A DNA stretch of 64,000 bases from Escherichia phage vB_EcoM-Ro121c4YLVW. A program made the translations under genes and the position numbers. The DNA is taken from sequence record NC_052654.1, one strand, 5' to 3'. The stretch's first letter is position 1. Each line of letters begins with the position of its first letter. Shown here piece after piece: positions 28,358 through 32,104 of the stretch. Under the pieces are notes generated by a model, which was not told the DNA's origin, made no database searches, and was given only the letters and a program-made list of their open reading frames with translations.

Positions 28358-28858
28358 ATGGCTAAAGTAGTAGATGAGTTTGATATGCTACGAGTCGATG
28401 AAGGACTGAAGCTTACTGTTTATCAAGACCATCTTGGTTATTGGACAGTCGGCATAGGACACCTTCTGACTAAAATAAAAGATAAAGCAAAGGCTATTCA
28501 AATCTTAGATAATCTCCTTGGTCGTAAGACCAATGGAGTTATCACAGAAAAAGAAGCCCGTCAAATCTTTGCTGACGATGTTGCAAAAGTGAAGAGAGAC
28601 ATAAAAAACAGTGCTATCTTATCACCAATCTATGATAAGGTGAGTGATACTCGTAAATTGGGAATAATCAACATGGTTTTCCAGTTGGGGTTAAAAGGTG
28701 CTGAAGGGTTTAAAAATAGCTTGACTTTAATCAGCAATGCATATTATACTCAAGCAGGTAAAAACATGCGTAAAAGCCGATGGTATAGCCAGACGCCAAA
28801 CCGTGCTGAACGAGTAATTAAAGTTCTGACTTCTGGAACTTTAGATGCTTACAACTAA
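28358..28858 (+). CDS. e: T4-type lysozyme (endolysin, gene e homolog)
   Basis: EMLRVDEGLKLTVYQD..GYWTVGIGHLLTK matches T4 lysozyme catalytic region (Glu, Asp, Thr). Confidence 0.9.
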   Translation: MAKVVDEFDMLRVDEGLKLTVYQDHLGYWTVGIGHLLTKIKDKAKAIQILDNLLGRKTNGVITEKEARQIFADDVAKVKRDIKNSAILSPIYDKVSDTRKLGIINMVFQLGLKGAEGFKNSLTLISNAYYTQAGKNMRKSRWYSQTPNRAERVIKVLTSGTLDAYN

Positions 28859-28860
28859 TA

Positions 28861-28880
28861 AAGGGGCTTCGGCCCCTTCT
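28861..28880 (+). terminator. hairpin AGGGGC-TTCG-GCCCCT
   Basis: Direct reading. Confidence 0.45.
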
Positions 28881-28895
28881 AAAAGGAGTGCTACT

Positions 28896-29654
28896 ATGGG
28901 AAATAAAACCGCAGCTAAAACACAACGGCAGAAACTGGCTAATTCAGCAAAGATTGAAAGCCGTTATGCAGCAAAAGCGGTAGGTAATGACGATTACCGT
29001 TTAGATGAATTTATGCCTGAAGGGGACCAAAATAAGATTGTTCAAAGCATGATTTGGAATGATCTGACTGTTGTAAATGCTCCGGCAGGGACTGGTAAAA
29101 CCTCTGTTGCTTTATGGAAAGCTTTGCAGATGCTTCGTTCAGGAGACTTCCGTAAACTACTTTTTATCAAGAACCCTACTGAAGTCGGAGATGACCAGAT
29201 TGGTTTCTTGTCTGGGGATAAAACAGATAAACTAGCAGCACACTATGAATCTACAAAACGTATTTTCCAGCAATTCATGACAGCCAACAAATTGGAAAAC
29301 GATATTGGATCAGGTAAGATCGAATTGAATATTCCTAACTATTTGTTGGGGGCTACCCTGGATAATACAATCGTCATTATTGACGAAGCACAACTCATGT
29401 CAACAGAAACACTTAAACTTCTTATTGAACGTGCAGGTATTAATACGCATGTTATTGTATTAGGCGATGTTCGCCAGACATATGCAATTAAAAAACGTAG
29501 CAATGGTCTGCATCAAATTTTGGAACTTTTATATCCAGAAAATGAAGAAGGTGTTCGTGAGCCAATTGTAGATTTTATTGGATACGTTGAACTGACAACG
29601 GACGATAATAAACGTGGACGTTTGTCTAAACTGATTACTGAAGTGTTTATTTAA
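28896..29654 (+). CDS. phoH: PhoH-like ATPase
   Basis: Walker A NAPAGTGKTS; start moved to Met after AAAAGGAG. Confidence 0.75.
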   Translation: MGNKTAAKTQRQKLANSAKIESRYAAKAVGNDDYRLDEFMPEGDQNKIVQSMIWNDLTVVNAPAGTGKTSVALWKALQMLRSGDFRKLLFIKNPTEVGDDQIGFLSGDKTDKLAAHYESTKRIFQQFMTANKLENDIGSGKIELNIPNYLLGATLDNTIVIIDEAQLMSTETLKLLIERAGINTHVIVLGDVRQTYAIKKRSNGLHQILELLYPENEEGVREPIVDFIGYVELTTDDNKRGRLSKLITEVFI

Positions 29655-29686
29655 TAATGTGGCAGGGAAGCCATTTATAAGGAGGA

Positions 29687-30190
29687 TTGATGGGTGTAGC
29701 AACAATAGCTATCGGAAGAAGCGGTATAGATGAGTGCTATCAAACGGGACTCGTAAAACCTAACGAATTTCGTCAAATTTGTGTAAACCATATTGAAAAA
29801 GAGATTGCTCTTACTTTAGAGAATATGACCCTCCGAGATAAACTGGAAATGTTTAAATGTTGGTGTCTAGGAGAAGATTGGCTTTTAAACCATTTTCAAG
29901 AACTTTCTGATAGTAAAGAAAGCTTGTTTGATTGTATAATAGGAATAGCTGGCTCCGATCCTAGCCTTCTGCACATAACAGAAGAAGAGGCGAAGTTACT
30001 GTTCTTAAGTAATTTGTTTAATAAGAAAGCACTGCTTGTTCGTGATTGTAGTGATCTTCTTAATAACCCGCTCGCAACGTCTGATCAAATTTTTGTTGAC
30101 AAAGAGACACTACGTGCGATAGAATACATCTGCAAATATGTGAATGGCGGGAAAGCGGTTCTTAAAACATTAACAGAGGAGGAAGAATAG
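29687..30190 (+). CDS. hypothetical protein
   Basis: ORF track. Confidence 0.45.
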   Translation: MMGVATIAIGRSGIDECYQTGLVKPNEFRQICVNHIEKEIALTLENMTLRDKLEMFKCWCLGEDWLLNHFQELSDSKESLFDCIIGIAGSDPSLLHITEEEAKLLFLSNLFNKKALLVRDCSDLLNNPLATSDQIFVDKETLRAIEYICKYVNGGKAVLKTLTEEEE

Positions 30191-30882
30191 TGACGACAAT
30201 TATTGCAACCAAAAATAAGATTTTGAGTGACGGTAAGGTAACTTTTGGTGGACGTGTAGATTCTATTAATTTCAAAAAGGTCCGAAAAATTGGAGATTAC
30301 CTTGTAGGTGGTGCTGGTCGTCTGACCTCCGTGCTTTCTTTCTTTCAATGGTTTGAACAAAATCTACAGTGCGAAGCAGCACGTGATGCTGTCCCTGGTT
30401 TGATGATTCACTCTGATCCAGATAAAGAAGATGAAGAGTTTATTGCACTTGTTGTTCATCCAGACGGACGTATTTTCCTGCACGAAGGTAATAACCCAAC
30501 ACGTGCATATCCGATTGATGAAGAATATTATGCGGTAGGAAGCGGGTCAGACTTTGCTTTAGCTGCTCTTGATGCAGGGGCAACACCAGAACAGGCTATG
30601 GAAGTAGCTAAAAAGCGAGATGCTTTTTCTGGTGGTGAAACATTTATTGAAGAACAAGACGAGATTATTGAATTAACAGATGATGATTTAGAAAACTTCT
30701 CCAAAGAAGAATTGATCAATCTTTTGAAATTCGGTAATCCCTACGGTGAAGAAGAACCTCGTAACGTGGCAGGTAACGAGGCGGATACTGAAGAAAAATC
30801 TGTTGCAGAAAACAACTTGACTTCTAAATCTGAAAATATTAATCTCGTAAATGTGGCGGATTTCGAAGGAACCGCTATTTAA
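30190..30882 (+). CDS. HslV-like Ntn-hydrolase peptidase
   Basis: N-terminal MTTIIAT (Thr nucleophile after Met), GG and AVGSGSDFALAA blocks; acidic C-terminal extension. Confidence 0.5.
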   Translation: MTTIIATKNKILSDGKVTFGGRVDSINFKKVRKIGDYLVGGAGRLTSVLSFFQWFEQNLQCEAARDAVPGLMIHSDPDKEDEEFIALVVHPDGRIFLHEGNNPTRAYPIDEEYYAVGSGSDFALAALDAGATPEQAMEVAKKRDAFSGGETFIEEQDEIIELTDDDLENFSKEELINLLKFGNPYGEEEPRNVAGNEADTEEKSVAENNLTSKSENINLVNVADFEGTAI

Positions 30883-30887
30883 CAAAC

Positions 30888-30908
30888 TGCCCCTTCGGGG
30901 GCATTTCT
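30888..30908 (+). terminator. intrinsic terminator GCCCC-TTCG-GGGGC + TTTCTT
   Basis: Direct reading. Confidence 0.5.
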
Positions 30909-30927
30909 TAAACATAGGAGATTAATA

Positions 30928-31362
30928 ATGTTACAAGTTCCTGCTAAGTTTGTTGAAGGCGCTATCCACTCTTACCGTCAAACATGTAAGAGGGCAAGAA
31001 ACTGTTTAGATGGTCTGGTGGCAAAAACCTATACTGTTGAAAAGAAGAAACGTTGGTTTGGCAAAGATGTTTACGAAGTTAATATTTTTGGTGAACATAA
31101 ACTAAACCACGATACTCCTGAAAACATGTTAGAAATATTTCTAAGAGATGACAAAATATCTCCTATGGATTACCAACTTTTAAAATTTTATGATTCTTCT
31201 TTGGCTATTGATAAGTTTGTTGAAGATATTCTGTCTAGAAAAACAGATAAAAACACTTATCCTCTAGAGGCTGATCAAATAGGATTATTAAACGAGATTT
31301 CATCCTTTAAAGAGTTGGATAATATTACAAAAGAGGAGATTTTAGATGGCATTAGATTATGA
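30928..31362 (+). CDS. hypothetical protein
   Basis: ORF track. Confidence 0.45.
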   Translation: MLQVPAKFVEGAIHSYRQTCKRARNCLDGLVAKTYTVEKKKRWFGKDVYEVNIFGEHKLNHDTPENMLEIFLRDDKISPMDYQLLKFYDSSLAIDKFVEDILSRKTDKNTYPLEADQIGLLNEISSFKELDNITKEEILDGIRL

Positions 31363-31855
31363 TCGCCCAACGAGCGATTATTATCCGACACCGCAAAAAG
31401 CAATCAATAGTTTGTTTAGTGTTATAGATTTCAAAAATCTAAAGGAAGAAGGTTGGGTTTTTGCAGAACCTTGCAGAGGTGAAGCTGAAGCGATTTATCG
31501 CCATTTTCCTGAAGGTTCAGAATATTGCGAACTTGAAGAAGGTAAAGATTATTTTAGTCATGAATGGGAAAATCGTCCCGACATTATAATCACAAATCCT
31601 CCATTTAAGTTAGCAATGGAGTTCTTGGAAAAGAGCTTAAAAGAGGCGGATGTTTGTATTTATCTTCTTCGGTTGGGCTTCTTGGAGTCAAAGAAACGAC
31701 GAGAGTTCCATCAAAAGAATCCACCAACAAACCTTATAGTCCTTTCAGAACGGCCTTCGTTTGTTGCAGGTGGAACAGATAAGACAGCATACGCTTGGTA
31801 TGTATACGACCCAAAGAATCGTTTGGGCCTCTCTCAACCATTTTATTTTGTTTAA
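31346..31855 (+). CDS. phage Dam-type N6-adenine DNA methyltransferase (small, NPPF motif)
   Basis: IIITNPPF catalytic motif in about 170-aa protein. Confidence 0.5.
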   Translation: MALDYDRPTSDYYPTPQKAINSLFSVIDFKNLKEEGWVFAEPCRGEAEAIYRHFPEGSEYCELEEGKDYFSHEWENRPDIIITNPPFKLAMEFLEKSLKEADVCIYLLRLGFLESKKRREFHQKNPPTNLIVLSERPSFVAGGTDKTAYAWYVYDPKNRLGLSQPFYFV

Positions 31856-31867
31856 GGAGTGTGAACT

Positions 31868-32104
31868 ATGGGTAAACTAATTATGACAGTGGCTATTGAT
31901 TTTGATGAAGTAGATGAAAGCCTCAACCTTTCACTTTCTACTGACGTAGATGGCGAAATGGATAATATTGAAGCAGCTACTGCTCTTTTCTTCAAAAAAG
32001 CCATTGAAGTTTATGCCGAACATGCTGCAAATCAGGCAGTAGATTACGGTGGTATCGTGCGAGCTTTAGTTCACTCTACCGAGGGCAATGACTGGGAAGA
32101 TTAA
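31868..32104 (+). CDS. hypothetical acidic protein
   Basis: ORF track. Confidence 0.4.
   Translation: MGKLIMTVAIDFDEVDESLNLSLSTDVDGEMDNIEAATALFFKKAIEVYAEHAANQAVDYGGIVRALVHSTEGNDWED

Follow-up and report, generated by a model that had tools for sequence, protein, structure and literature searches.

A predicted proteasome/HslV-like threonine peptidase with an acidic C-terminal tail in a Phapecoctavirus

Gene content of the locus

The DNA analysed here, a 64-kb stretch that we call the window, belongs to a Phapecoctavirus (phAPEC8 type). It contains a gene for a small threonine peptidase, with a PhoH-like ATPase gene and a second gene upstream and a hairpin downstream. The features discussed below are:

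28896..29654, + strand, PhoH-like P-loop ATPase, a recurrent neighbour of tail-bearing family members
29690..30190, + strand, upstream gene (phAPEC8 gp174, phrog_14834), whose stop overlaps the peptidase start; a neighbour and candidate partner
30177..30182, + strand, ribosome-binding site AGGAGG as read from the sequence, 7 nt 5' of the GTG start
30190..30882, + strand, coding sequence of the putative PPH-type proteasome/HslV-like Thr peptidase, 230 aa
30190..30663, + strand, predicted catalytic core, residues 1-158, delimited by invariant columns, the AF2 model and Foldseek
30193..30195, + strand, codon of Thr2, aligned to HslV Thr1 and the predicted Thr1 nucleophile after fMet removal
30415..30441, + strand, acidic segment D76-PDKEDEE-F84 before strand S7, aligned to the pore-lining Arg86/Arg89/Lys90 of HslV
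30664..30753, + strand, proximal tail or 'neck', residues 159-188, pLDDT about 88-91, with a conserved motif
30754..30879, + strand, distal tail, residues 189-230, predicted to be disordered; acidic, variable in length and poorly conserved
30888..30909, + strand, putative intrinsic-terminator hairpin TGCCCC-TTCG-GGGGCA followed by TTTCTT, 6 nt 3' of the peptidase stop

The peptidase gene is the orthologue of phAPEC8 gp175 (YP_007348462.1), and an identical protein is labelled "peptidase HslV family" (phrog_1040) in RefSeq. What had been noticed in the sequence was thus correct, but it concerns a gene that was already annotated and not a new system. No other peptidase paralog was found within the 64-kb window. 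The reading frame opens with GTG, the G of which is also the last base of the TAG stop of the upstream frame (a 1-base overlap). Since relatives carry ATG at this very position and all share an MTT N-terminus, the start call is right; GGAGGA is likewise kept at the position of the ribosome-binding site in diverged relatives. The first residues of the product are M-T-T-I-I-A (MTTIVSV in E. coli HslV), and it contains the blocks G40-G41-A42-G43 and A115-VGSGSDFALAA-A126. A preliminary description of this DNA had proposed an HslV-like protein starting MTTIIA at 30190-30882, with a GG block and a second HslV-like block, and this is borne out by the reading frame, by the presence of both blocks and by the profile and structure matches given below.

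The hairpin behind the stop codon is stable (dG = -15.1 kcal/mol, z = -4.5), and of 13 diverged relatives, 11 likewise have a hairpin with a T-run after the stop, with stems that differ but compensate; loci L026 and L027 are those without one. This conserved hairpin suggests that the peptidase gene is the last of its transcription unit. It sits among genes for RNR, ThyA, PhoH, lysozyme and methylase, with the terminase, portal and capsid genes about 28 kb off, and from this neighbourhood early or middle expression might be expected. A sigma70 promoter candidate at 30096-30125 (11/12 match) was rejected: its hexamers lie inside the codons of an invariant stretch of gp174 (VDKETLRAIEY) and vary at synonymous sites, so that the match is probably incidental.

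Fold, active site and relatives

In profile searches the protein scored 25.6 bits against Pfam PF00227 (gathering cutoff 22.4, E=1.1e-5) and matched phrog_1040 of PHROGs with E=1.6e-63 over residues 1-229, tail included. The top sequence matches in the PDB were HslV chains, the best being T. maritima HslV (1m4y, E=4.9e-9); similarity to the Betaproteobacteria proteasome homolog BPH was marginal at this level (E=1). The AlphaFold (AF2) model of the core has a pLDDT mostly above 90, and its best Foldseek matches were HslV (6kui, 1m4y and 3ty6) and BPH (5ovt), with E~1e-10 and a probability of 1.00, a probability also reached by 20S beta subunits. The scores for PF00227, phrog_1040, 1m4y and Foldseek together place the match far beyond chance. 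The comparison of the AF2 model with HslV and BPH, which had been proposed as a check, returned the alpha-beta-beta-alpha Ntn fold and not a non-Ntn one. By profile and predicted structure, the protein is a phage-encoded member of the proteasome-beta/HslV Ntn fold. Helices H1 (45-67), H3 (120-128) and H4 (133-143) are present in the modelled core, and helix H2 is absent, residues 68-83 being predicted as coil.

The catalytic residues can be read from the alignment as T2 (Thr1 in proteasome/HslV numbering), D14 (Asp17), K30 (Lys33), G43 (the oxyanion Gly, Gly47) and S118, the Ser of the GSG motif Gly117-Ser118-Gly119. Their conservation was counted in 150 representatives of family clusters at the 50% identity level. 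The Thr1 position holds Thr in 139 of 141 aligned representatives and Ser in 2, and 121 of the 150 start with MTT. The catalytic Asp was found in 145 representatives, with Glu in a further 2, the Lys in 149/149, the oxyanion Gly in 149/150 and the G-S/T-G motif in about 144-150 of 150. Such conservation points to a complete proteasome-type catalytic set under strong purifying selection. The preliminary description had named absence of the Lys/Asp partners as evidence against its assignment; both are present and near-invariant across the family. Its proposal that the Thr following Met is the nucleophile agrees with the alignment to HslV Thr1 and the near-invariance of this position, Met removal itself being a prediction.

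Homologs were found in 232 phage records, including phages of Escherichia, Vibrio, Caulobacter, Aeromonas and Rhizobium, with 123 family clusters at E<=1e-10; the fold is shared by 46 viral structure clusters. The tailed form is common to about 60 clusters of relatives and tail-less members are numerous; the nearest remote relatives are proteins of 135-160 aa that match residues 1-150 at 35-44% identity. A search of 185,579 species genomes for the tailed form in bacteria or prophages returned only a stray fragment of 425 bp, which suggests that this form is confined to phages in the sequences searched.

In 2021 Fuchs et al. (PMC8665760) described minimal proteasome homologs of phages as a family (PPH/RPC). 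They characterized PPH as proteins of about 140 residues, lacking H2 and S12/H5, in tailed phages and prophage regions of Proteobacteria, and cautioned that stacked rings may be lacking in some homologs (PMC8665760). Judged by these described features (the PPH reference WP_042125023.1 was compared by description), the window protein appears to be of the PPH type. Both are phage-encoded and free of a propeptide, with a compact core lacking H2 and S12/H5 and an intact Thr1/Asp17/Lys33/Gly47 set; the window peptidase differs from the ~140-residue PPH in its core of 158 aa and in the additional 72 residues of neck and acidic tail. RPC, likewise compared by description (reference WP_140207863), also lacks H2 and has an additional C-terminal stretch, in which its authors see a likely outward-facing interaction site (PMC8665760). 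However, RPC is listed only for Proteobacteria and not for phages, whereas the tailed form of the window appears to be phage-only. BPH resembles the window peptidase in that it derives from HslV, has no propeptide, shows an acidic pore region and lacks an ATPase of its own, but it has long pore loops, keeps H2, lacks a tail, is cellular and forms tetradecamers (PMC5777263). Although its active site is intact, it was inactive on standard substrates; it has lost the HslU-interface residues and gave no HslU pull-down (PMC5777263).

Pore segment and C-terminal tail compared with HslV

HslV (ClpQ) shares with the phage peptidase the MTTI... N-terminus, the fold and the catalytic residues, and it provides the best matches among solved structures. 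The phage core is, however, shorter (158 aa against about 175), lacks H2 and has shorter loops in the N-terminal hairpin and between H3 and H4. It also differs in its acidic instead of basic pore segment, in its C-terminal tail and in having no adjacent HslU. The position aligned to HslV Lys28, which we take to be a contact for the HslU C-terminus, is not conserved in the family. HMMER and a smaller alignment agree in placing K79/E82/E83 opposite HslV R86/R89/K90, a charge reversal, although one large MAFFT run placed the pore segment differently against E. coli HslV. A (D/E)(D/E)(D/E)F motif is conserved here, and in 130 of 150 clusters the net charge of segment 68-83 is negative. In HslV the basic cluster Arg86/Arg89/Lys90 lines the pore and responds to HslU (PMC5777263). 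Scores against the HslV equivalogs of NCBIfam were 32.2 bits for NF003964 (cutoff 137) and 31.4 bits for TIGR03692 (cutoff 157.75). No HslU/ClpX-type gene was found in the phAPEC8 genome, and none adjoins the family members in the Vibrio, Aeromonas, Pseudomonas, Caulobacter and Rhizobium phages sampled; the same pattern, an HslV-like gene without HslU, has been noted in the literature for a Salmonella jumbo phage. Because the equivalog scores lie far under their cutoffs, the pore cluster is acidic and the phage has no HslU, the peptidase is, by sequence comparison, not a true HslV or an HslV orthologue.

The chains of HslV (171-183 aa) end opposite residue ~160 of the peptidase. The remaining 72 residues are 25% Asp/Glu and carry a net charge of -13, so that the roughly 70-residue acidic tail without HslV counterpart that had been proposed is indeed there. 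Its description as novel does not hold for the sequence: an identical protein is in RefSeq, phrog_1040 spans the tail, and tails occur in the ~60 clusters mentioned above. The neck is the conserved part (mean identity to the query 39%, occupancy 91%). Two helices are predicted at 164-169 and 172-181 (AF2), and the conserved two-helix region, spanning about 163-186, bears the motif T-x-E-x-L-x-x-F-S/T-K/R-E-E/Q-L-I/L-N-L-L-x-x-G-x-P-x-G, which is kept down to about 42% identity. The distal tail has a pLDDT of about 41-51, a mean identity of 9% and an occupancy of 57%. Among close homologs, every one of the 75 tails that reach 20 aa or more has a negative net charge.

A suspected resemblance of the neck to SAP/HeH/Rho_N-like motifs was dropped when permissive Pfam scans of seven isolated tails gave no match. 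Where distant homologs have longer C-terminal regions, these likewise matched no known Pfam domain. A C-terminal docking motif of the HbYX or HslU-like kind was also discarded, the last residues of the peptidase not being conserved.

Possible roles during infection

We put the probability at roughly 75% that the gene encodes a PPH-type core of HslV/BPH descent, predicted to be catalytically competent, with a C-terminal appendage. Its biological role as an accessory, HslU-independent peptidase is a considerably more tentative proposal, to which we would give well under even odds. According to this proposal, host deformylase and Met-aminopeptidase would strip fMet and expose Thr1, which would attack the peptide bond with the help of Lys30 (=Lys33) and Asp14 (=Asp17), while Gly43 would form the oxyanion hole and Ser118 would support Thr1. 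By analogy to HslV (12-mer) or BPH (14-mer), the subunits probably assemble into ring-shaped homo-oligomers, which would fit the self-compartmentalising peptidase of the preliminary description and from which the two-helix necks might project the disordered polyanionic tails outward as arms for interaction or recruitment. The peptidase, made from the last gene of an early or middle unit, would act on host or phage proteins during infection as an accessory factor, neither essential nor structural. It probably works without a phage-encoded unfoldase and independently of HslU. As the pore segment and the tail are both acidic, basic or unstructured proteins or peptides might be the most plausible clients, which is speculative.

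Phage proteasome homologs are widespread and have been catalogued bioinformatically, and we found in the literature searched neither an experimental study of the function of this peptidase or any PPH nor a paper giving any of them a substrate or phenotype. That a proteasome active site is kept while HslU-facing elements are shed suggests proteolysis in infection that is ATPase-independent or differently coupled. The E. coli phage version is experimentally tractable, since it grows on a laboratory host, has simple genetics and comes with a naturally occurring deletion mutant, and might serve as an entry point to viral 'mini-proteasomes'.

In an alternative reading, the phage protein would take the place of host HslV, or mix with it, and E. 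coli HslU would drive it, so that the ATP-dependent protease of the host is redirected to substrates chosen by the phage. The hosts of PPH-type proteins, E. coli among them, carry HslUV. HslV is the closest solved relative, the phage has no unfoldase, so that the host ATPase would do the unfolding, and PPH-type proteins have been reported essentially from Proteobacteria and their phages (PMC8665760). However, helix H2 on the apical face is missing, the pore cluster that responds to HslU is acidic here, the scores remain far under the HslV equivalog cutoffs, the Lys28 position is not conserved, and BPH sets a precedent for an HslV descendant without HslU-interface residues that did not pull down HslU (PMC5777263). 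We consider such a hijack of host HslU unlikely. Little credence is also given to the idea that the protein is not degradative, being a connectase-like ligase or transpeptidase, an enzyme that processes its targets at specific sites, or a largely inert scaffold that functions through its tail. Ligation is within reach of the fold, as connectase demonstrates, BPH is inert in standard assays (PMC5777263), and neck and tail are a lineage-specific innovation; but an inert protein would not be expected to keep the full catalytic set under strong purifying selection, connectase is a group II homolog without the first helix pair (PMC8665760) whereas H1 is present here, and the many tail-less members imply that the core alone must be functional.

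A role in virion or prohead maturation, which the preliminary description had offered as one possibility, is extremely improbable. A head-maturation protease is required by many tailed phages; phAPEC8 has none annotated, and a gene between portal and decoration protein there has no assigned function. The gene of a prohead protease would be expected in the head module between portal and capsid genes, and the known prohead proteases have other folds. The peptidase gene, however, lies ~28 kb from the terminase-portal-capsid genes, in a nucleotide-metabolism region and a separately terminated unit, and the phages that carry the family are unrelated in morphotype and size, its members lying in every case within early-type gene clusters. 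In addition, the propagated isolate VEcB is viable with a deletion, which could be an assembly artefact, that removes residues 1-62 and hence the catalytic N-terminus. It is the location of the gene and this loss in VEcB that make maturation unlikely.

The neighbouring genes allow for a functional pair of the peptidase with the PhoH-like ATPase and/or gp174, the tail being a docking element. PhoH lies within about 0.2-3 kb at 22 of 22 tail-bearing loci sampled, among them those of Vibrio and Aeromonas phages as well as L026 and L027 (in reversed order in L027), and near the peptidase at 0 of 13 tail-less loci; the gp174 stop overlaps the peptidase start, and PhoH, gp174 and peptidase are all hit by the one deletion in VEcB. 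However, the tail-bearing members may all belong to one phage lineage, so that their synteny is perhaps inherited and not selected, PhoH/YbeZ is tied to RNA and ribosome maturation and not to unfolding, and gp174 is lineage-restricted, all-alpha and without structural match, and we find such a pair hardly probable. A bolder version of the HslU-independent peptidase, a polyanionic mini-proteasome (~-24 charge per subunit) with an acidic pore segment, whose outward acidic tails mimic nucleic acid as bait and capture basic host DNA- or RNA-binding proteins (nucleoid, ribosomal, defence nucleases) to be degraded, maybe together with the neighbouring PhoH-like ATPase as a new ATPase-peptidase pair for host takeover or counter-defence, is very unlikely.

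With respect to gp174, an Aeromonas phage has two adjacent family genes and the gp174 frame starts 'MGVATIAIG', and both observations motivated a comparison of gp174 with the peptidase as a hidden alpha-like second subunit. This candidate was rejected: there is no pairwise similarity and no profile match even at E<=100, and the AF2 model of gp174 (pLDDT 91.6) is almost all-alpha, with no match in the PDB. As a family-wide partner gp174 was set aside as well, since it occurs only within the lineage, among relatives whose peptidases are at least about 47% identical. The only AAA protein of phAPEC8, gp014, was considered as a phage-encoded unfoldase and dismissed, as it is clamp-loader/DnaC-like and encoded ~40 kb away; its gene adjoins that of a CapR-domain endonuclease.

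Identity of the peptidase

The ORF and the hairpin that follows it are placed as follows:
30190-30882, plus strand: peptidase coding sequence, 230 aa, GTG start
30888-30909, 3' of the peptidase stop codon: terminator hairpin with T-run, GC-rich, dG -15.1, z -4.5

An AGGAGG lies 7 nt before the GTG, whose first G overlaps by one base the TAG stop of the preceding ORF. The start is secure, since in diverged relatives an ATG occupies this position and the proteins open with MTT. In the vB_EcoM-Ro121c4YLVW record (P0023) the same gene is annotated as 159 aa from internal Met72, which costs it the catalytic N-terminus; either a mis-called start or a frameshift in that record is the likely reason.

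The preliminary description, made from sequence alone, had proposed an HslV-like N-terminal-nucleophile peptidase on the basis of its MTTIIA start and two sequence blocks. All three are present (GGAG at residues 40-43, AVGSGSDFALAA at 115-126), and four independent lines agree on a predicted proteasome/HslV-type identity: Pfam PF00227 (Proteasome; 25.6 bits vs a cutoff of 22.4), PHROG phrog_1040 ('peptidase HslV family'; E=1.6e-63, spanning residues 1-229), the top PDB sequence matches (13 HslV sequences, the best being T. maritima 1m4y, E=4.9e-9, residues 12-160) and an AlphaFold2 model. This model, built from 34 homologs (mean pLDDT 84.8, core mostly >90), retrieved both HslV and Betaproteobacteria proteasome homolog (BPH) structures in Foldseek (E~1e-10, probability 1.00).

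The protein aligns exactly with the HslV catalytic set (T2=Thr1, D14=Asp17, K30=Lys33, G43=oxyanion Gly), and its G117-S118-G119 aligns with Gly123-Ser124-Gly125. Across 1.84 billion cluster representatives, HMMER gave 2334 matches at E<=1e-3, of which 123 reached E<=1e-10 and 12 reached E<=1e-30. Among the best 150 of the 2334, Thr1 was kept in 139 of 141, the oxyanion Gly in 149/150 and G-S/T-G in about 144-150 of 150; the Lys and Asp partners, whose absence had been named as speaking against the assignment, were found as well (Lys 149/149; Asp 145, plus two Glu). Because the catalytic set is so strongly conserved across these matches, the sequences indicate an active enzyme.

The closest remote relatives in the scan were proteins of 135-160 aa matching residues 1-150. 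Fuchs, Alva and Lupas (2021) defined phage proteasome homologs (PPH) and a related group with an extra C-terminal region (RPC), both of which uniquely are without helix H2 (PMC8665760). Our model likewise has H1 (45-67), H3 (120-128) and H4 (133-143), with residues 68-83 as coil. Since the H2 position is coil and the nearest remote relatives are this short, we would file the protein as a PPH-type protein bearing a tail, and we put the probability that it is a PPH-type Thr1 peptidase, in identity and catalytic chemistry, at about 0.75.

The novelty claimed for it is not supported: the peptidase is already annotated and belongs to a family that was described in 2021, and finding it here is a rediscovery. 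The window is a phAPEC8-like Phapecoctavirus: of the 69 phage records that matched, 58 share at least 99% identity with it across 3 kb (vB_EcoM_3A1_SA_NWU 100%). The orthologue is phAPEC8 gp175 (YP_007348462.1). Public labels include 'peptidase HslV family', 'putative ATP-dependent protease subunit', 'putative proteasome component', 'putative 20S proteasome' and 'nucleophile aminohydrolase'. The homologs are spread over 232 phage records (Escherichia, Vibrio, Caulobacter, Aeromonas, Klebsiella, Rhizobium and other phages), and the fold is common to 46 viral structure clusters (BFVD). Some of the records matching positions 29000-32000, several of them at >=99%, bear the names Campylobacter phage B15/C3, Klebsiella phage ZCKP1 and those of Acinetobacter and Pseudomonas phages, probably through host mislabelling or contamination.

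Acidic tail and pore segment

An acidic tail of roughly 70 residues that HslV lacks had been described, and it is there: the last 72 residues are 25% Asp/Glu with net charge -13 (whole protein -24 vs -3 for E. coli HslV), and HslV chains of solved structures stop opposite residue ~160. The proximal tail (about 159-188) is predicted to form two short helices (pLDDT about 88-91) and carries the motif T-x-E-x-L-x-x-F-S/T-K/R-E-E/Q-L-I/L-N-L-L-x-x-G-x-P-x-G, recognisable down to about 42% identity; the distal tail (189-230), predicted to be disordered, shows poor conservation. Against the query, mean identity falls from 70% (core) to 39% (proximal) and 9% (distal). Tails of at least 20 aa occur in 75 of 83 close homologs (median 59, maximum 221). 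As all 75 are net negative, and 68/78 in a broader sample, the acidity is conserved and the sequence not.

In distant relatives larger regions replace the distal tail, some with CxxC...CxxC and Trp-rich ends, as in the metagenomic homologs P0061-P0071 (264-379 aa; e.g. ...KWRLHNA). Neither these regions nor isolated tails matched a Pfam family. The final residues are not conserved among homologs, so a docking tip of the HbYX or HslU kind is absent. In representative genomes from 185,579 species of bacteria and archaea the tailed form was not found; the single hit was a 425-bp contig (L007, JAPMLR010000072.1, 'Lysobacteraceae bacterium JHOS43'), 100% identical to residues 68-208 and almost certainly a stray phage fragment in a bacterial assembly.

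The peptidase is not an HslV orthologue, and NCBI HslV equivalog models score 32.2 and 31.4 bits vs cutoffs of 137 and 157.75. The HslV pore residues Arg86/Arg89/Lys90 are required for activity and are remodelled by the ATPase partner HslU; BPH, by contrast, works independently of HslU and its pore loop is acidic (PMC5777263). In the peptidase these positions align instead to K79/E82/E83, inside DPDKEDEEF; the (D/E)(D/E)(D/E)F motif is a conserved feature, and 130/150 clusters have a net negative charge over the segment. One large MAFFT run placed the E. coli row differently here; HMMER and a smaller alignment concur with each other on K79/E82/E83, and strand counting in the model backs them.

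Genomic setting and possible role

The peptidase stands in a plus-strand run with ribonucleotide reductase, thymidylate synthase, dTDP-sugar enzymes, glutaredoxin, lysozyme, PhoH, methyltransferases and a phosphatase, about 28 kb from the terminase/portal/capsid genes. The order Grx-lysozyme-PhoH-gp174-peptidase-gp176-methylase is kept down to 47% peptidase identity. The hairpin with T-run recurs in 11 of 13 diverged relatives (all except the tailed-homolog loci L026 and L027); since its stems are different and compensating, it is by sequence comparison a genuine terminator closing the transcription unit. A strong sigma70-like match at 30096-30125 was rejected as promoter: it lies in conserved gp174 codons whose synonymous sites vary in relatives.

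We found no HslU/ClpX-type gene in phAPEC8, nor any adjoining the family genes of Vibrio, Aeromonas, Pseudomonas, Caulobacter and Rhizobium phages; the absence of HslU has likewise been remarked in a Salmonella jumbo-phage paper. The sole AAA protein of phAPEC8, gp014, was rejected as unfoldase; it resembles clamp-loader/DnaC-type ATPases and adjoins a CapR-domain endonuclease. The peptidase would probably form rings, with the acidic tails as outward arms on a conserved neck, and would probably act independently of HslU. That it hijacks the HslU of the host, which would supply the ATPase, we regard as unlikely, and a non-degradative or ligase-like activity as more doubtful still.

In Escherichia phage VEcB (NC_052663.1, Justusliebigvirus) a single 267-aa fusion (L039:2501-3304) joins PhoH 18-133 to the peptidase from residue 63 onward, and it still carries the RefSeq label 'peptidase HslV family'. 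In its close relative, phage muut, PhoH, the gp174-like gene and the peptidase are all intact (L040:1535-3468). About 1.1 kb is deleted in frame, and with it gp174 and the peptidase Thr1, Asp17, Lys33 and oxyanion Gly are lost. Unless this is an assembly artefact, the peptidase is dispensable for propagation; either PhoH, gp174 and the peptidase are all dispensable or the deletion is such an artefact. If real, it argues against the virion-maturation role that the preliminary description had allowed for, which finds no support here and seems very remote, and it would suit an accessory role in interaction with the host.

Every tailed homolog sampled, those of Vibrio, Aeromonas, L026 and L027 (order reversed in the last) among them, has PhoH at a distance of about 0.2-3 kb, and none of the tail-less family loci examined has it nearby. 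This proximity may simply be common descent, and PhoH/YbeZ proteins have been associated with RNA and ribosome maturation; a functional pairing of the peptidase with PhoH or gp174 has little probability in our view. We tentatively prefer an accessory early/middle factor working without a phage-encoded unfoldase, a role that is possible at best.

Neighbouring and related genes

The upstream gp174 (29690-30190, phrog_14834) is predicted to be almost all-alpha (pLDDT 91.6), and its model had no structural match in the PDB (best E 0.24). Its Cys16 and Cys120 are invariant, and its motifs are VKPNEFRQ, VRDCSD and VDKETLRA; within its lineage it always adjoins the peptidase. Roughly at its place, between PhoH and peptidase, Vibrio phage qdvp001 (L002:4289-4519) and the unrelated viral contig L026 (3783-4010) share a conserved ORF of ~76 aa (...PW-x-x-YSRE-x-LEYS...). 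The longest PhoH ORF (28845-29654) overlaps the lysozyme gene end at its start; the start of the RefSeq orthologue, 17 codons later (about 28896, MGNKTAAK...), is more probable.

Aeromonas phage 2L372D has two different proteasome-like genes in tandem, whose products may be a hetero-oligomeric pair. The tail-less 183-aa paralog (L003:4432-4983) keeps Thr1/Asp/Lys, with Thr for the oxyanion Gly, GCG for GSG and longer HslV-like loops; the second (L003:5001-5885) is a 294-aa tailed form. Unusual auxiliary genes of phAPEC8 encode a dTDP-rhamnose-type sugar-nucleotide pathway (thymidylyltransferase and epimerases) and four glycosyltransferases in a row (L001:15658-18936, L006:3618-6765), and may serve in DNA or surface glycan modification.
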